Positions 3,253 through 48,520 of a stretch of 64,000 bases of DNA are shown piece by piece (position 1 is the first letter of the stretch; every line of letters starts with the position of its first letter). This stretch comes from a phage. The DNA is taken from assembly GCA_037431425.1 (NCBI GenBank), contig GCA_037431425.1_4129.2. One strand, written 5' to 3'. The notes under the pieces are model-generated. The model did no database searches, was not told the DNA's origin, and saw only the letters and a list, made by a program, of their open reading frames with translations. A program made the translations under genes and the position numbers.

Positions 3253-6200
3253 TTAAGCGGTACGTTGAGCAATAAACATATCTGCTACTGAACTTACACC
3301 ATCGTAAATTACCTGATAGATAGTTACAGAGTTTGCAGTTTTATTTAGAGTCCCATCAACAACAGCATATGTACCATCAGTAGTAAAGTTTCTATTACCA
3401 GTTGCATCTTGTTTAACATAAATGTATACTGATGATGCTTTTCCACCACCGATTAGACCAGTGATTGGTGCTAGAGTAGTATCTTGATCAAGAGTGATGA
3501 AGTATACGTTGCTAGTACCGTCAGGGGTCCAAGTACCATTCGGTGCAATAACAGAGGAAGTTACTTTACTTGGAATAACATCATACTTTTTGGTAGTTAC
3601 GGTTGTAGTGGCGAGTTCTGCGTTGGTTGTAGTTAACTTACCAGTAACAGTTACTTCTTTATCAAACACCGCATTTTCTTTGAAAGTTGGTGTTGAATTA
3701 ACAGTTAGTGTGTCAGTATTAGTATTACCTAAAACCACACTACCACTTGCTGTCATCAAACCAGAAACAGTTAGTGTACCACCAATAGTTGCATTACCAG
3801 TTACTGATGCACTAGCAAGTGTAGCTGCACCAGATGTAGTTATTGTTGTAACAGATGCTGCCTCTAGTGTGGTTGCACCAGTTGCGGTAAGTTTACCATC
3901 AACTACTAGATCACCAGTTACGGATGCACCACCGGACATTGTTACTGCCCCACCGAATGAACCAGTTGTAATTACTTCAAGTGTGTTACCTTTTAGTAAT
4001 TCAGTTGCTGTGATACTTGTACCAGCGGTAATGCTTGTACCCGCAGAAACAGTATTAGTTGCAGTTAAGGACTTCACAGCTACATCAGAGTTAGCTTGGT
4101 TAAGTTTAGCATTTAGAGTACCTGTTACTGTGAAGTCACCGTTGTTAACAACATTACCATTGATAGTTAGGTTGTTATTTTGTGAACCGACATCACCAAT
4201 TGTTGCTGATTTAGAAATTAACTCAGCACCAGCGGTAATGTTGCCAGCAGCACTGATATTGTTTGCTGCAACAACTGCATAAGGTTCAATTGTTTGACCA
4301 CTAACATCAATATCTGCGTTAATACCACCATCAACACGCAAAGAACCAGCAATATATGTATTAGGGAAAATCTGAACAGTTTCAGTGTGTTCACCGACCT
4401 GTGTACCAACAATAACATTAGATCCAGTTTTCACTGCACCAGAAGTTGTTAGAGAACCTACTGTTGCTTTGCCAGTAACACCTAGTGTACCGCCAACAGT
4501 TGCATTATTAGTTACTGCCAATGCTGTTCCTTCACCATTCAGTGTAATTGATGGAGCAGTTGCTTTACCAGTTACATCTAGTGTACCACCAACAGTTGCA
4601 TTACCATCTGAATGTATTGTTGTTGCAACAGAAAGACTGTTTGCAATTACATCCGCACCAGTCAAATCCAATGCACCTGGTGTTAATGTACCAGTAATGT
4701 TAACATTATTACCAAAGGTTGCTGCACCAGTTACATCTAGTGTAGTGCTAAATGTACCAGAAGTTGCAGAGATTGCACCAGATTCAAGTGAACCAACAGT
4801 GGTTTTTCCAGTTACACCCAGTGTACCACCAACTGTTCCATTTGTTGTAACTTCTAGTGTTCCAGTACTTAGATCTTTTGCTGTCACTTTACCAGATGCG
4901 TTAACAGTTGTTGTTGTAACACCACCACTTAGGGTGCTTGTCCCAGTAACACTGAGTGTTTTTGCTGCACTAACGCTGTTTACAGTAAGATCAGCACCTG
5001 ATAGGTCTAAACCACCTTCAGGAATAAAATTACCCTTAACTGTTAGTTGTTGAACAGTACTGTCACCAGTTACATCTAGTGTAGAAGCAGTCAAACCACC
5101 ATTCATACTTGCTGCACCAGTTACATCTAGTGTAGTTGTTACAGTTGCACTGTTTAGTGTGGAGCTACCGGAAATATTAGCACTAGGTGCAGTAATAGAT
5201 CCTTTTACAACTTGTACATCACCCGCAACAACATCAATACCACCAGCATTAACTGTTAGTTTTTCAGCAGTATTCAACGTACTTGAAATTGTTGTTGCAC
5301 CAGTTAAGGTTGTAGTTCCAGCTACACTTATGTTTCCAGAGATAGATGGATTACCTGTAATGTCACCAGTAGTGAGAACCAATTCAGTACCTACAGTAGT
5401 AGAACCAGTACTTTCTAGTGTTACACCAACGATGTTTGCAGAACTTAGGTTAATAGTACCATCAACAGTTAAGTTACCGTGAACTGTCGCATCACCAAGT
5501 GAATTTAATGTTTTCACTGAAACATCAGTTTTACTAAGGTCAATTACACCCGCAGTAAGTGTTCCAGATACTGCCAAATTACCAGTTATTGCTGTATTTT
5601 TAGTAATAGATACTGTTTCTGATGCTGACGTAATGGAGCCAGCAGTAAGTGCCCCACCAATGGTTGCATTGTTAGTTACGGTTAACGCTGTTTCTTCACC
5701 AGATAGTGTTAAAGAAATACCATTCATTTCACCAGTAATATTTGCCGATGCCGCAGAAATATCACCAGCAACTACCGCATTTGTTGCGTTTAGGGTTGTT
5801 GTGGTAATTTCAGTACTTTTCACTTTAGGTAGTGCGTTGATACCATCTTTACTATTAACTGTAATAATACCAGTACTTGTTAGAGATTTAACAGATACAT
5901 CAGCACCACTTAAATCAACTGTACCAGAAACAACTAGATCGCCACCAATATTAGCTCCTTCTGTTGTAGTGATTGATTTTGCATTAACTTCAGTGTTACT
6001 CAAATCAATTGCACCAGGTGATACAGTTCCAGAAACTGTGAGATTACCAGTAACTGTAGTATCATTAGAAATAGATACACCATCATCATTGCTAATTGTT
6101 GGGGTTTCAATTGTAACAGCTTTAACTTTACCAGAAGAAGTCATGTCAGCAACAGTAGATGCACCAGTAACATTCAAATTAGTAATATTTGCAGTTGTTG

Positions 6201-8796
6201 AACCAAGGGTTGCAATAGTTGCATCAGTACTTTCTAGTTTAGGAAGAACACTAGCAATAGAAGATTCGTTACTAACAATTGCACCAGTACTAGTTAAAGA
6301 TTTGACAGTAACATCAGCCGTAGTAAGATCTACTGTACCATTAACAGTTAGGTTACCACCAATAGTTGCACCAGCAGTAGTAGTAATGGATTTAGCATTA
6401 ACATCAGTTGTTGCTAGATCGATAGAACCTGGAATAACTGCACCAGTAACGGTTAGGTCACCAGTTACATTTGTATTATTGGAAATAGTGACACCACTTG
6501 CATTTGAAATGGTTGGGGTAACCAACGATGCAGTTGTAGTTTCACCAGTTACAGTTAAAGTTGACCCAACTAGAACAGATGAGCTTGAGTAAATTGTACC
6601 CAAATTAGCAGATCCGGTAACAGTTATATCATCAGCATTAACAGTAGTTGCCGTTATGGTAGTACTATTAAGTACTGGAAGTACGTTAGCATTAACAAGA
6701 TCATTACTTTTAACAATACCAGAAGTAGTTAATGATTTAACATTAAGGTTGGCTGCTGATAAATCAAAAGAGCCTTGAACTACTAAATCACCACCTATAG
6801 TTGCACCAGCAGTAGTAGTGATTGATTTAGCATTAATATCGGTAGTGCTCAAGTCTAGAGAACCAACAGTTAAGCTACCAGTAATATCAACATTTTCTGT
6901 AAAGTTAGTATTACCACTAATAGTTGGTGCAGTCAGAGTTGTTGCACTAATATTAGTACCGTTAATTGTTTGCCCACTTACAGTTCCACTCGCAGTGATA
7001 GTAGGAGCCGTTACTTCAGTAGATGCACTAATTGTTGGTGCAGATACAGAAGTTGTACCAGTAATAGTACCAGAACTTACTGAACCAGCGGATAATGCAC
7101 CAGAAAGAGTTGCAGTTGTACCAGCAATATCACCAGTAACAGTTAGTTTAGCACCCACGGTAGTGTTACCAGTACTTTCAAGTGTTGCACCTTTAATATT
7201 TGCTGCCGCGACAACAGAATTAGGTGTTAGATCTTGACCACTAACATCAACAGTTAGTCCAGTTACTGTTCCAGTAAATTCAACATCATTAAGAATTGCC
7301 TTACCACCAACTGTAAGGTATGGTGTACTTGGGTCTTGAGTATCGTTACCAGTGATAGTTAGATAATCTAGTTTGTTTAGGCCGTTACCAGTAATACCAT
7401 AAGAAGATAGTGATGCATTACCAAAGGTAGCAGTTTTAAGTACTTTCAATGTTGCTGGGGAAACCAACTCAGATTGAACTTCATTAGGTAAAATAACAGT
7501 TGGACGTTGATCTTGTGCGGTATATGCAAAACCTAGTTTCACAGCAGAATCTTGTGAATTTTGACCTAAACTAATAGCTTTAAAAGAAGCAGTACCGTTT
7601 AAACCAGTAATATTAGATCCTAGTGTAACACCACCAACTAAAGAAGACGCACCCTTTATATTTAAAGTGTTTGCATCAATATCATCAAGTTGGAAATCAC
7701 CACCAAATGTACCGGAAACATTAATATTATTAAAATTAGCAGTACCAGTACTTTCAATATCTGGAATGGTTGCTGTTCCAGTAACCTCAAAATCAGCAAC
7801 TTTAGTTTTACCTTTTGTCACTTCTAGAAGTGGGGTGTCAGGTGATTGTGTATCGTTACCAGAAACGGTTAGATAATCTAGTTTGTTTAGACCATTACCA
7901 GTAATACCATAAGAAGACAATGATGCATTACCAAAAGTAGCAGAAGTTAAAACTGTCAATTTAGCAGGTGACATTAATTCAGATTGAATTTCATTTTGTA
8001 GAATTACTGTTGGACGTTTATCAGGAGCACTGTAAGGGAAGCTCAATCTGGAGGTTTGTGATTCAGAGTCGGTTCCGATACGGATATCTTTAAATGTAGC
8101 AGTGCTATTAATACCAGTTACGTTAGCACCAAAAGTTACCGCACCTTTTTGATTAGATGCACCAGTAACATTCAATGTTTCAGCGTTTAAATCAGAAAGA
8201 TTAAACTCGCCACCTAGTGTACCACTAATATTCACATCTTGAAACTCAGCAGTGCCAGTACTACTGATGTCTTTAATTTTTGCAGAATTGGCAGTAATTT
8301 TATCAAATGCGGCAGTAGTTCCAGAATACGCAACTAAGTCACCTTTCATGCTCAAGTTACCTTTTGTACTTAAGTCCCCTTCCACGTTTAATGTACCGTT
8401 CATTGTTGCTGTCTCAGCAACTTCCAATTGTTTAACTTTAGTTGCTTGAAGTGTTGTTTTACCCTCAGATTGAGTGAGATCTGCACCCACCGTAACAGTA
8501 CCGTTAAATGTGGCGTTTGCATTAATTGTTGCTGTATCAGAATCACCATCTTCACTACCGATTGTAGTATTACCTTTAATATCAAGACCACCACTTAGTG
8601 TTGCTTTTCCAGCAACATCTAATGTGGATGTAATATTGGCAGTTTCGGTTTCAATGGCAGTAAAAGTTGCATTTGTGAAAGATATACTACCATTTACAGT
8701 TAGGTTATTCTTGAATACAGCATTCCCTTTGACTAAAAGATCCTTACCAACCGTACCGGAGCCAGTAATATCTAAGTCAGTTTTTATTGAGTACAT
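3253..8796 (-). CDS. Very large fibrous protein (1847 aa), probable long tail fibre/adhesin
   Basis: 5.5-kb ORF; Thr/Ser/Gly/Asn/Val-rich low-complexity sequence; two families of long in-frame repeats; RBS GGAGGG 5 nt upstream of ATG at 8796. Confidence 0.65.
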   Translation of the reverse strand: MYSIKTDLDITGSGTVGKDLLVKGNAVFKNNLTVNGSISFTNATFTAIETETANITSTLDVAGKATLSGGLDIKGNTTIGSEDGDSDTATINANATFNGTVTVGADLTQSEGKTTLQATKVKQLEVAETATMNGTLNVEGDLSTKGNLSMKGDLVAYSGTTAAFDKITANSAKIKDISSTGTAEFQDVNISGTLGGEFNLSDLNAETLNVTGASNQKGAVTFGANVTGINSTATFKDIRIGTDSESQTSRLSFPYSAPDKRPTVILQNEIQSELMSPAKLTVLTSATFGNASLSSYGITGNGLNKLDYLTVSGNDTQSPDTPLLEVTKGKTKVADFEVTGTATIPDIESTGTANFNNINVSGTFGGDFQLDDIDANTLNIKGASSLVGGVTLGSNITGLNGTASFKAISLGQNSQDSAVKLGFAYTAQDQRPTVILPNEVQSELVSPATLKVLKTATFGNASLSSYGITGNGLNKLDYLTITGNDTQDPSTPYLTVGGKAILNDVEFTGTVTGLTVDVSGQDLTPNSVVAAANIKGATLESTGNTTVGAKLTVTGDIAGTTATLSGALSAGSVSSGTITGTTSVSAPTISASTEVTAPTITASGTVSGQTINGTNISATTLTAPTISGNTNFTENVDITGSLTVGSLDLSTTDINAKSITTTAGATIGGDLVVQGSFDLSAANLNVKSLTTSGIVKSNDLVNANVLPVLNSTTITATTVNADDITVTGSANLGTIYSSSSVLVGSTLTVTGETTTASLVTPTISNASGVTISNNTNVTGDLTVTGAVIPGSIDLATTDVNAKSITTTAGATIGGNLTVNGTVDLTTADVTVKSLTSTGAIVSNESSIASVLPKLESTDATIATLGSTTANITNLNVTGASTVADMTSSGKVKAVTIETPTISNDDGVSISNDTTVTGNLTVSGTVSPGAIDLSNTEVNAKSITTTEGANIGGDLVVSGTVDLSGADVSVKSLTSTGIITVNSKDGINALPKVKSTEITTTTLNATNAVVAGDISAASANITGEMNGISLTLSGEETALTVTNNATIGGALTAGSITSASETVSITKNTAITGNLAVSGTLTAGVIDLSKTDVSVKTLNSLGDATVHGNLTVDGTINLSSANIVGVTLESTGSTTVGTELVLTTGDITGNPSISGNISVAGTTTLTGATTISSTLNTAEKLTVNAGGIDVVAGDVQVVKGSITAPSANISGSSTLNSATVTTTLDVTGAASMNGGLTASTLDVTGDSTVQQLTVKGNFIPEGGLDLSGADLTVNSVSAAKTLSVTGTSTLSGGVTTTTVNASGKVTAKDLSTGTLEVTTNGTVGGTLGVTGKTTVGSLESGAISATSGTFSTTLDVTGAATFGNNVNITGTLTPGALDLTGADVIANSLSVATTIHSDGNATVGGTLDVTGKATAPSITLNGEGTALAVTNNATVGGTLGVTGKATVGSLTTSGAVKTGSNVIVGTQVGEHTETVQIFPNTYIAGSLRVDGGINADIDVSGQTIEPYAVVAANNISAAGNITAGAELISKSATIGDVGSQNNNLTINGNVVNNGDFTVTGTLNAKLNQANSDVAVKSLTATNTVSAGTSITAGTSITATELLKGNTLEVITTGSFGGAVTMSGGASVTGDLVVDGKLTATGATTLEAASVTTITTSGAATLASASVTGNATIGGTLTVSGLMTASGSVVLGNTNTDTLTVNSTPTFKENAVFDKEVTVTGKLTTTNAELATTTVTTKKYDVIPSKVTSSVIAPNGTWTPDGTSNVYFITLDQDTTLAPITGLIGGGKASSVYIYVKQDATGNRNFTTDGTYAVVDGTLNKTANSVTIYQVIYDGVSSVADMFIAQRTA
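5570..6910 (-). repeat. ~420-bp in-frame tandem repeat, 3 full copies plus a partial, inside the 1847-aa fibre gene
   Basis: Protein repeats beginning G-ID/LDLS-T-VNAKSITTT-GA-IGG-L-V-G-VDL; DNA motif GATTGATTTAGCATTAA recurs near 5980, 6400 and 6830; boundaries approximate. Confidence 0.5.
7250..8280 (-). repeat. ~510-bp direct duplication (2 copies, ~170 aa each) inside the 1847-aa fibre gene
   Basis: DNA motif GTTAGATAATCTAGTTTGTTTAG at ~7358 and ~7868; protein segments ...RPTVIL-NE-QSEL-SPA-L-VL-(S/T)ATFGNASLSSYGITGNGLNKLDYLT... nearly identical. Confidence 0.55.
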
Positions 8797-43745: not shown

Positions 43746-45893
43746 ATGCTAAACATTACACGTATATCTATGCGAAACTTCTTTTCATTCGGTAATGCAC
43801 CACAAATTATTGAATTGAATAGTTCTGACATTTCATTAGTACTGGGTCAAAATAATGATGCAGTTATTGAAGGCGGTGACAGTTCTGGACGACGAAATGG
43901 TGTAGGAAAAAGTGCAATTATTCAAGGATTAGTTTTTGGATTATTTGGAAAAAGTATTGGGAATGATATTAAAATCCCCAACTTAGTTAATAAAACTAAT
44001 GGGAAAAATTGCGAAGTTGTGGTGGAGTTTGAAAAAGACGGTGTGCAATATATTGTTGAGCGTGGGAGAAGTCCCACGTATTTCAATCTTGTTACTTTAG
44101 GTAAAGATGACAAAATTGAAGATGAATCAAGGGGTGAAAAGAAAGACACTCAAGAAGATTTGAATGAAATTCTTGGAATATCCCAATTATTATTTGAACA
44201 TATTGTAGTACTGAATGCAAACGTTGAACCTTTCTTGGCGTTATCCACACAAAAACAACGTGATATGATAGAAGAACTTCTAGGTATAACACAGTTAACA
44301 GAAAAAGCCGAAATATTAAAGGAGATGTACAAGGATACTAAACGCTTAGCAGAGCAAGAAAAGTTTAAAAATGAAACAGTTGCTGCAAGTAACGAACGTA
44401 TTCAAAAAAGTATTGAGGTTCTTCAAGAACAGGCAAACCAATTTGAGATCGATAAAAGTAATAGAGTAGCGAAGTTAAATGAAGAGTTGAATATTTATAA
44501 AACTTTCGACTTCAATGAACTCTATAAAGCTGCTGAAGAGAAAGAGAAAGCTCTTATTCATAACACAAAGCGTAATGAAATAGAACGCCGTGTACAAGAT
44601 TTAGCTTTAAAATTTGATGCATATGACCGTGAGATTGAATCATCCAAACGTGCACTAAAACTAAGCATTGATAAACTAAAAACTATTGATATTAGTGCTG
44701 AGTTGGAAAATCATAATGAACTAGAGATATGGAAACAGTTAGAAGACATTCTTAAAGAGAATAATAACCAAAAACGTTTCAAAGAGCAAAAGCTAAACTC
44801 ACTAAAAGTTGCATTAAAAGGGTATGAATGTTCAATTAATGCTGAAATTGACAAATTATCAACCGTTGAAAATAGTAAATGTCCACTTTGTATGTCAGAA
44901 TTGGAACATAATGAACATACTTCTTCAATTAAAGATAAAATTCAAAGTACTATTGACGATCTTCAAGCCAAAATTGACAGTTCTTCTTCTGAAATTGAGA
45001 TTTTACTTAAAGAAATTGAGAGTATTGAGATTTTTGATATGCCACCTAAGCCTGTGACATATTATAATACACTTTCAGAAGCACAAATGCATGAACATAA
45101 GCTTCAAGAATTGATCAAAAAGAGTGAAGAAGAGCCAATAAACATCTATGCAAATGAACTTATGTCATCATATGATGAACTTAACTCATATGAACTAATG
45201 GAAGTTCCAGATACATTAAACAAATATGAAGTTAAAGAGTTGGAAATGACCGTAAATTCATTATCACAGCAATTAGATCGTGAATTGAAGACTACTAACA
45301 CATTTATTAGTCAAATTAATACCCTGAAGACTGATTCTTTAGTACCAATCGATTATAGTGACTATAATAATCTTGATAAAATGTCAAATCACCAAGATTT
45401 CTTGGTTAAATTACTTTTAAACAAGGATTCTTATGTCCGTAAACGTATTATTGAGCAAAATATCTCATATTTGAATACACGACTTCAGTACTATATCGAT
45501 ATGTGCGGTTCTGAGCATAATGTTGTGTTTTTGAATGATTTGAGTGTTGAAATTGAGAAGAGTGGGCAGTACTTTGACTATAAACAGCTTAGTCGTGGTG
45601 AGCGTACAAGGGTAAACATCGCATTATCTTGTGCTTTCCGTGATACATACGAGTCATTATATCAAAGTATCAATCTAATAGCACTAGATGAAGCTTGTGA
45701 TGTTGGTCTTGATTCAAGTGGTGTTGTTAAAGTGTGGTCAATCTTCAATGACATGGCTGCTATCAGAAATAAAAATGTATATATCATCTCACATAGAGAA
45801 GAACTAGTTTCTAAGACTGAACATATACTTAAAGTAACCAAAGAAGATGGTTTTAGTACTATAAGTTACTGTACAATTGATGATATCTATTAA
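43746..45893 (+). CDS. 46: Recombination ATPase, T4 gp46 / Rad50 (SbcC)-like (715 aa)
   Basis: Walker A GRRNGVGKS near N-terminus, long coiled-coil middle with CPLC zinc hook, C-terminal signature LSRGERTRVNIALSCAF and Walker B IALDEA. Confidence 0.8.
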   Translation: MLNITRISMRNFFSFGNAPQIIELNSSDISLVLGQNNDAVIEGGDSSGRRNGVGKSAIIQGLVFGLFGKSIGNDIKIPNLVNKTNGKNCEVVVEFEKDGVQYIVERGRSPTYFNLVTLGKDDKIEDESRGEKKDTQEDLNEILGISQLLFEHIVVLNANVEPFLALSTQKQRDMIEELLGITQLTEKAEILKEMYKDTKRLAEQEKFKNETVAASNERIQKSIEVLQEQANQFEIDKSNRVAKLNEELNIYKTFDFNELYKAAEEKEKALIHNTKRNEIERRVQDLALKFDAYDREIESSKRALKLSIDKLKTIDISAELENHNELEIWKQLEDILKENNNQKRFKEQKLNSLKVALKGYECSINAEIDKLSTVENSKCPLCMSELEHNEHTSSIKDKIQSTIDDLQAKIDSSSSEIEILLKEIESIEIFDMPPKPVTYYNTLSEAQMHEHKLQELIKKSEEEPINIYANELMSSYDELNSYELMEVPDTLNKYEVKELEMTVNSLSQQLDRELKTTNTFISQINTLKTDSLVPIDYSDYNNLDKMSNHQDFLVKLLLNKDSYVRKRIIEQNISYLNTRLQYYIDMCGSEHNVVFLNDLSVEIEKSGQYFDYKQLSRGERTRVNIALSCAFRDTYESLYQSINLIALDEACDVGLDSSGVVKVWSIFNDMAAIRNKNVYIISHREELVSKTEHILKVTKEDGFSTISYCTIDDIY

Positions 45894-45900
45894 TAACAGA

Positions 45901-45927
45901 AAAGGGGGCTTATGCTCCCTTTTTTAT
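45901..45927. terminator. Intrinsic terminator after gp46-like gene
   Basis: Stem AGGGGGC / GCTCCCT (one G-U pair), loop TTAT, followed by T6. Confidence 0.55.
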
Positions 45928-46002
45928 TATCATTATATCTATTGTTTCCATACATCCTACATCGAACTAGATTTTGTAAGATATAGGATTGGTAATGTGT
46001 TT

Positions 46003-46497
46003 TTATTTTGTATCTCTTTTTACATCAACCATGTTTAATTTACCGTCCTTAATTAGCTTTCTAGCTTGTTTTACACGAGCAGTAGTGTTGCTACCAGGGA
46101 CGACACCTAACCCTTCCAGAATTGCGTTTTGCTGCGTTGCTGGAAGCCTTTTAAACTTATTCACATCTACTGTTAGTGCTGTGTGATGTATCACTTGCTC
46201 TTCTAGTGGGATGTTGTTGTTCTTTTCAAGATAATCTGCCAGATTTCTTAGTACTTCATGTAAAGGCATATCAGTTAAATGCTTTCCATATCGGTTCCAT
46301 GCGTTGGAAACTTTACCTTCAAATGCGTTTATTTCATTCTGTAGAACTTCACGACAGTGTTGGTTACCATAATGGTAGTGATCCAGTACTGGTTTAGTTA
46401 TTGGTTCCTTAATTATAGGATCAATTCCTTTTTGCTTCTTTAGTAATTCATTACGATAGTTTGCAGCTTCTTTACTATCTTTTAATCTTTTCTTCAT
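46003..46497 (-). CDS. Endonuclease VII (T4 gp49)-like protein (164 aa), lacking the zinc-binding cysteines
   Basis: PVLDHYHYGNQHC...NAFEGKV...HEVLRNLADYLEKN parallels T4 endo VII HLDHDHELNG...CNAAEGQ...GVDYLEWLENLLTYLK; sits after the 55/47/46 block as gene 49 does in T4; only one Cys present. Confidence 0.45.
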   Translation of the reverse strand: MKKRLKDSKEAANYRNELLKKQKGIDPIIKEPITKPVLDHYHYGNQHCREVLQNEINAFEGKVSNAWNRYGKHLTDMPLHEVLRNLADYLEKNNNIPLEEQVIHHTALTVDVNKFKRLPATQQNAILEGLGVVPGSNTTARVKQARKLIKDGKLNMVDVKRDTK

Positions 46498-46527
46498 AAA
46501 TCCCCACCAAACTAATTTTTATAAAAA

Positions 46528-46535
46528 TATTTATG
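46528..46535 (-). promoter_or_regulatory. Late-promoter-like box (CATAAATA) for the endo VII-like gene
   Basis: Reverse complement of 46528-46535 is CATAAATA, 31 nt upstream of ATG at 46497. Confidence 0.35.
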
Positions 46536-46588
46536 AGTTACATTAGAGAACAATAATTATGTGTTTTTTGATAAATAAATTTAAATTA

Positions 46589-46618
46589 TTTGAGACAACT
46601 TTGAAGTTTGTGCTATAA
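46589..46618 (+). promoter_or_regulatory. Strong sigma70-like promoter firing into an ORF-free interval
   Basis: TTGAGA (46589-46594) - 18 nt - TGcTATAAT (46610-46618); no ORF of 60 aa or more downstream until the terminator at 47069-47093. Confidence 0.5.
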
Positions 46619-46624
46619 TGTTTG

Positions 46625-47093
46625 ATGTAGTAATGACAATCCTGTTGAATGCAGAAATGCATATAAATTAGAACCTGATCCTATCGAAAATGTAGATGGC
46701 AGATGAGCAGTTCAACAGTGCGATGAGCAGAAGAAACCCGTCAGAAGTGGGCATAGTTTGAACCCCTCACGGCAATGCGGCTCAATAAAGAACTCCGATA
46801 AGCATACAGAGAGTTCCTAGATAGACATATAAGGAATCACACCTTACCAGATTTGCTAAGGGAGTTTATTAATTGATTTTAATAAACAGCCTGAAGTTTG
46901 ATTGTATAGACTTTCAGGTGAGTGCTGGGATGAAAAGACCAGTGACCGTTGCATATGACCGTGATAGGGAGAAACAGAGCAACCCGCTTCCGTTTGTGAT
47001 TGATCATTTTACAATATAGATCCGTCCAAAATTCACGATACAATAAATGCTGAAACCATCAGCGTCAAGAAGAGACTTAATTGTCTCTTTTTT
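46625..47093 (+). ncRNA. Candidate ~470-nt non-coding transcript (promoter-to-terminator unit without a credible ORF)
   Basis: Bounded by the promoter at 46589-46618 and the terminator at 47069-47093; relatively GC-rich, several short stem-loops; only ORFs of 35 codons or fewer with poor RBS. Confidence 0.3.
47069..47093 (+). terminator. Intrinsic terminator ending the candidate ncRNA
   Basis: Stem AAGAGAC (47069-47075) / GTCTCTT (47082-47088), loop TTAATT, then T6. Confidence 0.6.
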
Positions 47094-47309
47094 ATTACTT
47101 TCATTCCCCTGCGGGGGGATGAAAATGTCCTCAACAAATCCCGTCAAGTTTTAAATCTTTAAAAGTTCTTTCTAAATTAATTTAATGAAATGAATATGAG
47201 TTACGTAGTAACGAATATTCTTCAGGTAACGAATGAAATGAGTTAGCTGAATCCAATATATTAAAATTAATCTTTCATAATTCAATTCAAATAATTCTGT
47301 AGTTTAAAA

Positions 47310-47339
47310 AAACAAAAAAAACCAGCAACAATGTGCTGG
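47310..47339 (-). terminator. Intrinsic terminator after the 69-aa gene
   Basis: Stem ACCAGCA / TGCTGGT (47320-47339); on the minus transcript it is followed by U8. Confidence 0.55.
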
Positions 47340-47351
47340 TAATTATGTGAT

Positions 47352-47561
47352 TTAGTGCTTCTCGTTTTGTTTTTTAATTTTCTTATTAAAAGACTTAACT
47401 AATAAGTCTCTATCTATTAAAGGCATATTAAGAAGTGTTCCATAGTCAATATTATCCATATAAACAGAACACTCCATTAGTGCTTGTTTGATTTCTGACT
47501 TATTCAGTTCTATCTCCCTTATGACTTCTTGTATTTCTTCAGGAGTTGACTGGAGAAGCAT
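47352..47561 (-). CDS. Small hypothetical protein (69 aa)
   Basis: ORF translationally coupled to upstream gene (1-nt stop/start overlap at 47561); followed by a terminator. Confidence 0.45.
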   Translation of the reverse strand: MLLQSTPEEIQEVIREIELNKSEIKQALMECSVYMDNIDYGTLLNMPLIDRDLLVKSFNKKIKKQNEKH

Positions 47562-48397
47562 TACTCGAAAAAATGACTAGGATCATATTTTAGTCCATCA
47601 ATTTCCCATTGATGATTACAGTTACTACATTCAACTTCCATAGTATGGGAGACACCAATCTCAAGTACTTCATCCATTTTTTCACGAATTAGTTTAAGAA
47701 CTCCCTTCGATTGTTGACCGAGCCATTCATTAATAAATTCCTTTTCAACTACTTCATCACCGTCTGGTGTTATAATTTTTGCAATAACTCCACCAATCAT
47801 ATCAAAATTAAGTTGAGCCATACTTTCAAAAACTTCTGAAAATATTTTTACTTTTTCATCCTTGTCAATATCAGCAGTTTCAAGAAACTTGGTTTTTTGT
47901 TGTTCGTTGAACATGCGTTCTGCAAAAGATGAATATTCTTTCCATGTAAGTGGTTTAAATTCCAAACGTAGACCGTTATCCAAATCAACAGAAGGAATTT
48001 CACTAAATGATTTCGCAGTTTCAAGTAGATATGATAGATTACGCTCAAAGCGTCCCTCTTTTTCACATTCAGGACATACTACGTTAATGTCATATGTTTC
48101 TTCTTTCGAAGCAACTTTAATTGCAATAAGAAGCATTTCAACATCATTTACATATAGTTCATCTGCATCAATTACATTCGGAACACAGTTCTCAATCACA
48201 CGTGATACTGCATCACCATTTAGTAGCATATCTGGTGTATTCAGTGTCATTTCATCACGTGCACTACGTGCACAAACTCCGCACTTGACACCTTTTGGTC
48301 CTAGTACTCCATCTTTATAAGGAATAACACCGTTTGTAACCAACTTAGTACTGATCTCTTCAATTTTAGTGTACTTAGCAAGTGGATTCATAGCCAT
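47561..48397 (-). CDS. Hypothetical late protein with three CxxC motifs (278 aa)
   Basis: Start moved from track 48502 to ATG at 48397 (RBS GGAG; late box 36 nt upstream); CGVC, CPEC, CSNC motifs suggest Zn-ribbon(s). Confidence 0.55.
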   Translation of the reverse strand: MAMNPLAKYTKIEEISTKLVTNGVIPYKDGVLGPKGVKCGVCARSARDEMTLNTPDMLLNGDAVSRVIENCVPNVIDADELYVNDVEMLLIAIKVASKEETYDINVVCPECEKEGRFERNLSYLLETAKSFSEIPSVDLDNGLRLEFKPLTWKEYSSFAERMFNEQQKTKFLETADIDKDEKVKIFSEVFESMAQLNFDMIGGVIAKIITPDGDEVVEKEFINEWLGQQSKGVLKLIREKMDEVLEIGVSHTMEVECSNCNHQWEIDGLKYDPSHFFE

Positions 48398-48432
48398 TTT
48401 GTTAAATCTCCATGTAATAAATGTGTTTATAG

Positions 48433-48440
48433 TATTTATA
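48433..48440 (-). promoter_or_regulatory. T4-type late promoter box (TATAAATA) for the 278-aa gene
   Basis: Reverse complement of 48433-48440 is exactly TATAAATA, 36 nt upstream of ATG at 48397. Confidence 0.45.
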
Positions 48441-48480
48441 ATACTAAAATCAAACAATTTTTTTATATTATATATAGTTT

Positions 48481-48488
48481 CATAAATA
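48481..48488 (+). promoter_or_regulatory. Late-promoter-like box (CATAAATA) for the 733-aa gene / portal operon
   Basis: CATAAATA 33 nt upstream of ATG at 48521. Confidence 0.4.
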
Positions 48489-48520
48489 TTTCTATAATAC
48501 ATCTATTAAAAGGGAATGTT

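Follow-up and report, generated by a model that had tools for sequence, protein, structure and literature searches.

Large, intricately folded RNAs are rare, and RNase P, the group I and group II introns, OLE, GOLLD and ROOL each opened new biology. GOLLD, ROOL, OLE and raiA are several hundred nucleotides (nt) long, combine many conserved helices and pseudoknots with invariant junctions, and were found by comparative analysis with their function unknown at discovery; GOLLD and ROOL are in addition often borne by phages or prophages. Here we describe an RNA element that resembles them in each of these respects and that lies in an interval of 854 base pairs (bp; positions 46498–47351) of a 64-kb stretch of phage DNA, called the window below whenever its full length is meant. 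The source of the window is an Asteriusvirus-type jumbo phage, and the interval is 99.1% identical to Escherichia phage ph0011 by blastn. The original prediction, made from the letters of the window alone, had described the interval as free of open reading frames (ORFs), GC-rich and bounded by a promoter and a terminator, and had proposed a phage small RNA or a replication origin. We conclude that the interval is almost certainly a functional structured RNA element, as opposed to coding sequence, a chance pattern or plain DNA spacer. The element is also one of four paralogues per genome and is not restricted to phages, and on both points the original prediction has to be corrected.

The likeness to the known ornate RNAs is one of general architecture. 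The element matches none of the Rfam models of GOLLD, ROOL, OLE and raiA in sequence or structure, and unlike these RNAs it is found in Gammaproteobacteria and their virulent jumbo phages, is present as 3–5 diverged paralogues per genome that each have their own promoter, contains a terminator-like hairpin inside its conserved part, and carries two direct repeats, R1 and R2, that co-vary. Some of the covariation-supported ‘pseudoknots’ in RNAs of this kind proved to be intermolecular contacts within homo-oligomers (PMC12286853), and by analogy it is possible that contacts described below as pseudoknots are made between molecules of the element rather than within one. The jumbo phages offer a second comparison, as four ORF-free long non-coding RNA (lncRNA) regions of 236–619 nt were identified by RNA-seq in Pseudomonas phage PA5oct, which belongs to a related clade (PMC7318152). 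Two of the PA5oct lncRNAs, like the window copy, are on the plus strand beside minus-strand or structural genes. However, PA5oct ncRNA001–004 are not homologous to the element, given that its covariance model scored them at no more than 8.5 bits (E = 0.45, filters off) compared with 105–124 bits for true copies. As an observation in its own right, ncRNA004 (L100:517-1135) and ncRNA003 (L101:466-1069) are both ∼600 nt long and occupy ORF-poor gaps on the plus strand.

A search of Rfam 15 (4227 models) with E values up to 10, covering positions 45500–48500 and 46610–47170, returned only sub-threshold look-alikes of terminators and GC hairpins; the models searched include RNase P, tmRNA, 6S, group I and II introns, GOLLD, ROOL, OLE, HEARO, RNAI and the known ribozymes. 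The Rfam/Infernal scan that had been put forward as a check of the original prediction thus matched no family, and a scan of seven bacterial loci at the gathering threshold found nothing at the element. ARAGORN detected no tRNA or tmRNA. Two further resemblances were rejected: ACAGAGCAACCCGC and UAAGGGAG, which resemble the S-domain of RNase P, occur in reversed motif order and gave no covariance-model match, and a hammerhead-like GAUGAG...CGA...GAAAC arrangement has unfit spacing and likewise no covariance-model match. The element is not mentioned in the jumbo-phage genome papers that we searched (UE-S1, CBB, fEgEco12, phAPEC6 and Eneladusvirus), and wider literature searches did not turn it up. 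Judged by its sequence, its structure model and this literature, the element is apparently an undescribed RNA family that would be new at the level of RNA class.

The structured non-coding RNA half of the original prediction held up on the strength of covariation among the homologues and of conservation, the element being present in 73 phage records as well as at 69 loci in metagenomes and 8 in bacterial genomes. For metagenomes and bacterial genomes we searched with a strict 24-base motif taken from the most conserved stretch (window positions 46944–46992). From 71 full-length regions (730 nt around the motif), clustering at 96% identity gave a set of 51 distinct sequences, to which all homologue counts below refer; the alignments are plain MAFFT alignments, and the covariance model covers the 3′ domain. 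These sequences define a conserved core at ∼46670–47148, in which invariant blocks alternate with variable hairpins. Like all features of the element given below, the core is read on the plus strand. The predicted 525-nt RNA folds with a z-score of −5.8, and none of 100 dinucleotide shuffles was as stable.

The strongest covariation was obtained for the 3′ domain (46884–47044), which is modelled as doubly pseudoknotted from alignment A1 (46884–47050; 51 sequences, 183 columns), RNAalifold and pair counts. RNAalifold assigned 28 pairs to this domain, 25 of which showed compensatory change. Both pseudoknots were suggested by an all-against-all covariation scan and were then added before pair counting, which brought the model to 40 pairs. 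With these pairs, 97.2% of alignment cells were paired, compared with 39–46% when the 3′ partners were slid by 1–3 columns, and the covariation score was 0.68, compared with 0.08–0.12 for the slid controls. Both sides had changed in 35 of the 40 pairs, and no shuffle of 500 reached any of the observed covariation measures. The domain consists of a long hairpin (∼46888–46899/46908–46919), a short hairpin (46924–46927/46940–46943), a helix (46960–46964/47033–47037) and a second helix (46967–46971/46987–46991), followed by a variable hairpin at 46994–47030. In pseudoknot 1, the loop of the long hairpin (AUUGUAU, 46901–46907) pairs with AUACAAU at 47038–47044, a strand that stacks directly on the 46960–46964/47033–47037 helix; all seven pairs had changed on both sides, and 99.1% of cells were paired. 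Pseudoknot 2 arises where the 46967–46971/46987–46991 helix is crossed by a helix formed between 46948–46952 and 46979–46983, within the near-invariant GACCGUUGC...GAGAAACAGAGCAACCCGCUUCCG.

The 5′ domain (46674–46864), modelled with RNAalifold and pair counts on the same homologues, is closed by pairing of CCU (46674–46676) with the GGG (46860–46862) of the invariant CUAAGGGAG. It encloses hairpins at 46680–46685/46695–46699 (with the conserved loop GAAAAUGUA), 46707–46711/46717–46721, 46790–46794/46812–46816 and 46830–46833/46843–46846, together with a helix at 46724–46728/46780–46784 and another at 46738–46741/46769–46772 that surrounds a variable hairpin. For the 32 predicted pairs of this domain, 90.4% of cells were paired, compared with 38–41% after sliding, and both sides had changed in 25. 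Covariance analysis, the second computational check named with the original prediction, was therefore strongly positive across the 51 homologues, the two pseudoknots included. The stem-loops that had been singled out in the original prediction, GAACTC/GAGTTC (46790–46795/46811–46816) and CCTGAA/TTCAGG (∼46890–46918), proved to be real and to covary. The short direct repeat GATGAGCAG was also recovered in two copies (46702–46710 and 46722–46730) flanking a small conserved hairpin; the exact repeat is confined to the lineage of the window, and it is the hairpin between the copies that is conserved. A hairpin module (...UACAAUAUAGAUCCGUCCAAAAUU) is found at either of two alternative sites, or at both, across the homologues, an arrangement that may be likened to the peripheral elements of large ribozymes.

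Conservation does not end at the terminator that the original prediction had taken as the 3′ boundary of a ∼470-nt transcript. The hairpin itself (AAGAAGAGAC/GUCUCUUUUU; 10 pairs at 47067–47092) is followed by a T-run, encoding a U-tract, so that positions 47067–47098 have the appearance of an intrinsic terminator, and terminator-like sites are in excess in this region (5 versus 1.1 expected for 45500–48500, both strands). A hairpin with a T-run of T4 or longer is present between R1 and the downstream GC hairpin in 24 of the 51 homologues and missing in 27, and the spacer from R1 to the GC hairpin is only 0–7 nt in 18. Where the hairpin is present its stem covaries among genera. One bacterial island copy (L090) has a hairpin at this position without a T-run, and no terminator was found in the 0.5 kb after its element. 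The terminator-like hairpin is therefore an optional insertion in the family: the hairpin and T-run are as originally described, but the idea of a small RNA bounded by a terminator fails because they occur in only 24 of 51 homologues and covarying structure lies downstream.

That downstream structure consists of a GC hairpin and the second of the two repeat boxes, both of which lie 3′ of the terminator position in every homologue, and the element thus continues past the terminator-like hairpin to the GC hairpin and R2. The GC hairpin (47099–47124; UUUCAUUCCCC/GGGGGAUGAAA), located from the conservation profile, has 11 bp and a UGCG loop, and its G-run (G6) is near-invariant. Its stem shows a compensatory change from UUCAU/AUGAA to UUCUA/UAGAA in homologue L094, and in homologue L042 its loop has taken up an additional hairpin. 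Box R1 (CCAUCAGCGUCAAG, 47056–47069) precedes the terminator position, and box R2 (AAAUCCCGUCAAG, 47136–47148), a 13-nt direct repeat of R1, follows the GC hairpin; both were placed from the table of homologues. The two boxes vary in parallel, as GCGUCAAG/CCGUCAAG in the window, UCGUCAG/UCGUCAG in GAP32-like copies, GCUUCAAG/CCUUCAAG in RaK2, CAACGAAG/CACGAAG in a divergent clade and CGACAA/CGACAA in a Serratia island. Mutual information between them was 0.58–0.86 at four matching position pairs (∼490 columns compared); three pairs (47059/47139, 47068/47147 and 47069/47148) are mutual best or near-best partners, and the fourth (47062/47141) is the tied-best and second-best partner.

We searched for a pairing partner that might explain the R1/R2 covariation, using duplex scans and mutual information, and within the element found only a pairing with 46768–46771 and a local hairpin upstream of R1. 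In the former, the CCGU of R2 can pair with ACGG (46768–46771; 4–6 bp), which would constitute a third pseudoknot; the corresponding long-range pairing in the RaK2 lineage is AAGGCG/CGCCUU, and in L042 a 4-bp UUCG/CGAA pairing is possible that is not kept in its close relatives L048 and L069. A third long-range pairing in the fold is therefore possible. No complement inside the element accounts for the GUCAAG part shared by R1 and R2. A reading of the boxes as minus-strand −35 elements was rejected because other lineages lose TTGAC.

Beyond R2, about half of the homologues carry the motif ACG[ACT]AGTGA at a distance of 10–110 nt, never on the opposite strand and in small hairpins, and this module is conserved across the different paralogue loci. 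In the window this is an AT-rich module (47195–47245) whose small hairpins bear GUAACGAAU(A/G) as the local version of ACG[ACU]AGUGA. The repeat that had been noticed in the AT-rich tail (GTAACGAAT(A/G), GTAACGAATG) is this local form, with two copies at 47209–47218 and 47227–47236.

At the 5′ end, the predicted promoter is likewise part of the conserved arrangement. A sigma-70-type promoter (TTGAGA, an 18-nt spacer and the extended −10 element TGcTATAAT) at 46590–46619 matches the consensus at 11 of 12 positions, ranks first among the 12 promoter-like sites that a consensus scan found in 3 kb, and would start transcription at ∼46626; it is the near-consensus promoter of the original prediction, whose coordinates were off by one base. 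Because the total number of promoter-like sites in the 3 kb is not above shuffle expectation, the call rests on conservation: 49 of the 51 homologues have an upstream −10 box that agrees with the consensus at 5 or more of 6 positions, and in 41 of those it is TG-extended. Between the predicted start and the core lies a variable leader (46626–46673), defined by the conservation profile and alignment, that contains a small hairpin (46649–46653/46658–46662) with a GAAA loop. This leader is missing in ∼7 homologues, among them island copies (L090), in which the −10 box stands only 8–9 nt before the conserved core. GC content is 0.40–0.415 across 46600–47100, compared with 0.235–0.33 on either side and 0.26–0.29 downstream, in agreement with the claim that the transcribed part is GC-richer (∼0.41) than its flanks.

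Matches to the interval were found by blastn in 70–73 GenBank phage records from Rak2-like jumbo phages of several genera, whose named hosts are Escherichia, Salmonella, Klebsiella, Erwinia, Yersinia, Serratia, Cronobacter, Pectobacterium and ‘Xanthomonas’, and the complete genomes among the matches listed have 3–5 separate matching places each. In phage EC22.5-2 (complete, unannotated, 352 kb), four paralogues lie on the same strand at ∼90, 143, 223 and 333 kb, and the one at 223 kb is orthologous to the copy in the window. A search with the 3′-domain covariance model recovered these four and the window copy, at 105–124 bits, and nothing else. No further copy is present inside the 64-kb window, the other paralogues being 80–130 kb away. 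The window copy lies between the endonuclease VII gene and a baseplate (hub) gene, and its orthologues in GAP32, Serratia phage BF and Munch occupy the same position, from which we conclude that the phage copies are old and not recently mobile. Across distant genera the sequence of the element is much better conserved than that of its neighbors. In Salmonella phage Munch an extra 318-amino-acid (aa) gene is located between the endonuclease VII gene and the RNA element (L020:513-1469), and the locus is otherwise syntenic with the window. The other three paralogues are embedded in plus-strand arrays of small genes and are followed by genes on the same strand. Of the 69 metagenome loci with the strict motif, several are on contigs of 350–370 kb that have 3–4 copies each, and a scan of IMG/VR returned phage 121Q only. 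The element is a core, multi-copy feature of the whole Rak2-like jumbo-phage clade.

The 8 bacterial loci with the strict motif are of a different kind. Single copies are carried by Enterobacter, Silvania, Serratia, Buttiauxella, an Enterobacteriaceae isolate and an Enterobacteriaceae metagenome-assembled genome; in Escherichia coli the element is present in 2 of 5426 complete genomes, where PGAP (the NCBI prokaryotic annotation pipeline) annotates nothing at it, and it is absent from all 72,556 plasmids searched. The bacterial copies reside in small integrative islands, most with an integrase gene adjacent or within ∼2 kb, and the integrases are unrelated, being either tyrosine recombinases or any of four different large serine recombinases. 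One island type also encodes a LexA-like cI repressor, a Ner-like regulator, a 286-aa membrane protein, an LprI-like protein and a small resolvase, and in islands of this cI type the RNA and the repressor gene are in convergent orientation. In E. coli, the insertion site of the island is immediately next to ffs, the gene for 4.5S RNA, and IS3 interrupts the integrase. The cargo is variable; its defence genes (L031:1172-4580, from a metagenome; L043:898-2354; L099:13026-13727, from the E. coli EEC_W5 island) include a complete Lamassu system (LmuA/B/C, E ∼1e-165 to 1e-243), a DarT-like gene with a UvrD/GajB-like gene, and PDC-M45. Among the island proteins scanned there were no replication, packaging or capsid genes.

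To account for these observations, we favor the explanation that the interval is the gene for a large structured non-coding RNA, one of four independently promoted paralogues, that acts in trans as a scaffold or decoy for a factor; we give this a probability of about one half. The RNA would be transcribed by host RNA polymerase from the start of infection and at a high level, and the four copies would provide a high dose. The invariant pseudoknot core, the R1/R2 boxes and the repeated hairpin modules of the folded RNA could then provide binding sites for at least one factor, either protein or nucleic acid. Neutralizing or recruiting a host or helper factor, for instance, might be useful to a virulent jumbo phage and to integrative defence islands alike. 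Action in trans is favored because a cis signal would not require so elaborate an architecture, because no co-oriented gene follows the window copy or the copies in cI-type islands, and because nothing positive points to origin activity (flat GC skew at three of four copies and no plasmids). The genes next to the window copy and its orthologues in GAP32, BF and Munch are on the opposite strand, which also counts against cis-regulation of a downstream gene.

Several points weigh against this explanation. The partner in trans is hypothetical; no phage homologues of the island proteins were found by tblastn, and no shared protein partner encoded beside the RNA is evident. We found no RNA-seq in the literature for any phage that carries the element. 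No trans-acting RNA known to us has a pair of direct repeats that co-vary in the manner of R1 and R2, and these repeats may instead point to a role in cis or at the DNA level. Conserved sequence runs on into the AT-rich region, past any set 3′ end. Finally, the genes recognized in the islands are those of an integrase, of regulators and of defence cargo, with no replication genes found, a content in keeping with the origin function considered next.

The most serious competing idea, although we consider it rather doubtful, is that the element specifies a cis-acting primer or origin RNA. The transcript would be made by host RNA polymerase, and its 3′ part (the G-run hairpin, R2 and the AT-rich tail) would form a persistent RNA-DNA hybrid that primes leading-strand synthesis by the T4-like replisome, in a manner similar to ColE1 RNA II or T4 oriF/oriG. 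The 3–5 copies would be the phage origins, and the islands in bacteria would be satellites whose copy allows a helper jumbo phage to replicate them. ColE1 RNA II is ∼550 nt long and must fold correctly, T4 has about five origins and is not known to need a dedicated initiator protein, and T4 oriF/oriG use a MotA-dependent middle-mode promoter. The element shares with these systems a strong promoter that drives an untranslated structured transcript of ∼0.5 kb, a G-rich segment near the 3′ part (here the invariant G6 run) with AT-rich DNA beyond it, several copies spread over a T4-like genome, and small carriers without replication genes. The predicted transcript would run toward DNA with a GC content of 0.26–0.29. 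Parallel change of R1 and R2 could reflect iteron-like DNA sites, and absence from plasmids would fit an origin that works only with a phage replisome, although it argues against an autonomous origin.

There are also differences. The promoter is of the sigma-70 extended −10 type and not a T4 middle promoter: in place of a MotA box (TGCTT) at −30, which is not visible, there is the −35-like TTGAGA with an extended −10 element, a criterion taken from T4 that may not apply to these phages. No Rfam RNAI match and no RNA I-like antisense partner was found, and, unlike ColE1, the element does not reside on plasmids. The tertiary architecture is far more conserved than ColE1 or T4 origins are known to need, with 2–3 pseudoknots and an invariant core maintained by covariation, and to our knowledge R-loop origins do not require a conserved tertiary RNA fold. 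The motif in the AT-rich region is strand-specific and lies in hairpins, which is more RNA-like, and in about half of the homologues a terminator precedes the region in which priming would occur. At three of the four copies the cumulative GC skew has no inflection, and at the fourth gene orientation changes; little weight can be given to this, since skew in this genome tracks transcription and gene orientation. The T4 oriF/oriG-type origin of the original prediction therefore receives no direct support from GC skew or plasmids, though the 3–5 copies resemble the several origins of T4 and the scanned island proteins include no replication genes.

A cis-regulatory function is unlikely. In such a scheme a leader RNA would modify RNA polymerase for processive antitermination, like HK022 put, or sense a ligand or factor, and thereby control read-through of the terminator hairpin into the co-oriented genes of three paralogues, or elsewhere antisense to the cI gene or late genes. 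The order of promoter, structured RNA, terminator and conserved downstream sequence is what such a leader would have, three of the four paralogues are followed by same-strand genes, and in cI-type islands a read-through transcript would run antisense to the cI gene. A structured RNA near the promoter and ahead of a terminator is what the element has in common with HK022 put and lambda nut. However, the element is ∼7 times larger, with a size and complexity far beyond known antitermination RNAs, its terminator is optional (missing in 27 of 51 homologues), and no co-oriented gene comes after it in the cI-type islands or at the window copy, which keeps its position in different genera.

Still less probable is a ribozyme or a component of an RNA-guided mobile element, with R1 and R2 as equivalent processing or recombination sites and the pseudoknot core as the catalytic or guide portion. 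An invariant pseudoknotted core with peripheral hairpin modules at alternative insertion sites is reminiscent of large ribozymes, and the duplicated boxes that change together and the association with integrases in bacteria could be read in the same way. Yet no known ribozyme model matches, and the phage copies have no adjacent recombinase and occupy loci conserved across genera, so they have not been recently mobile. A dedicated pairing of the RNA with one protein is also hard to reconcile with the island integrases, which are of unrelated families (tyrosine, and several types of large serine recombinase).

The coding content of the interval gives little reason to look for a protein. As originally claimed, there is no ORF of at least 60 aa within 46498–47351 on either strand. 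The further statement that all ORFs are of 35 codons or fewer was wrong, since a 54-aa ORF (46879–47043, minus strand), a 48-aa ORF with a TTG start (46873–47019, plus strand) and a 47-aa ORF (47004–47147, minus strand) are present. None of the small ORFs is conserved among the homologues: no reading frame on either strand is maintained, stops occur in all frames, and indels inside the candidate ORFs are not multiples of three. One or more small-protein genes, such as the 48-aa ORF, which follows a Shine-Dalgarno-like AAGGGAG (CUAAGGGAG, 8 nt before the TTG codon), or the 96-aa coding sequence (CDS) annotated in ph0011, can be dismissed as very improbable in spite of the 1–4 hypothetical proteins annotated here in several GenBank records, given that ORF length and frame differ between near-identical genomes (48 aa in the window, 96 aa in ph0011), that large non-multiple-of-three indels fall inside the ORFs, that other homologues have stops in every frame, and that the substitutions are compensatory for base pairing and not synonymous. 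The annotations in question (GenBank OP557969.1 with WAE77185.1, JP4, SHEFM2K, E9.1 and BAU.Micro_ELP-22; 1–4 ‘hypothetical proteins’ in the equivalent of window 46873–47163) are probably spurious CDS calls, because no frame is conserved and indels are not multiples of three.

Returning to the RNA itself, we put forward only tentatively the broader proposal that it is a new class of large pseudoknotted RNA needed by virulent jumbo phages and copied by defence islands that exploit them, in the form of a helper-dependent RNA-primed origin or hijacking signal or of a catalytic or self-assembling RNA, with R1 and R2 as sites for a co-evolving factor. If the satellite and origin interpretation were true, the islands would be the first satellites of jumbo phages, and it would explain the copy number, the G-run with its AT-rich tail, and carriage by islands that have no replication genes. 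Large ornate RNAs on mobile elements have precedent in GOLLD and ROOL, and the element belongs to neither. In linking a virulent phage with mobile defence islands (Lamassu, DarT-like and other systems), the shared RNA raises the ideas of satellite-helper exploitation, an RNA-primed origin and an arms race at the RNA level. Several phages of this 350-kb clade are studied as therapy or biocontrol candidates, and the element in them is currently unannotated or mis-annotated as ‘hypothetical proteins’ in public records; further members can now be searched for with the alignment, the structure and the covariance model.

The neighbors of the window copy are both on the minus strand. On the left, the start of the endonuclease VII gene (46003–46497) borders the interval, and on the right the interval is bordered by the stop of a 69-aa gene (47352–47561), which is followed by a gene annotated as ‘baseplate protein’ in ph0011. 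A minus-strand intrinsic terminator (47321–47340) ends the 69-aa gene; it may work bidirectionally and could then end a long form of the RNA. Weak Rfam matches to Arrc14 and CyaR at this site reflect the terminator only. A strong plus-strand terminator with a 12-bp stem (45898–45925) directly follows the gp46-like recombination nuclease gene (43746–45893), and the weak small RNA matches there (sraA, RatA) are terminator look-alikes only. Elsewhere in the window, imperfect direct repeats of 33–79 nt in up to 7–8 copies are located at 594–1106 and 3739–6372, and probably belong to tail-fibre or adhesin genes rich in repeats. In ph0011, the closest relative, a gap of ∼2 kb without an annotated CDS (L003:3082-5076), near the left end of the genome and outside the stretch that aligns with the interval, might hold another non-coding element.

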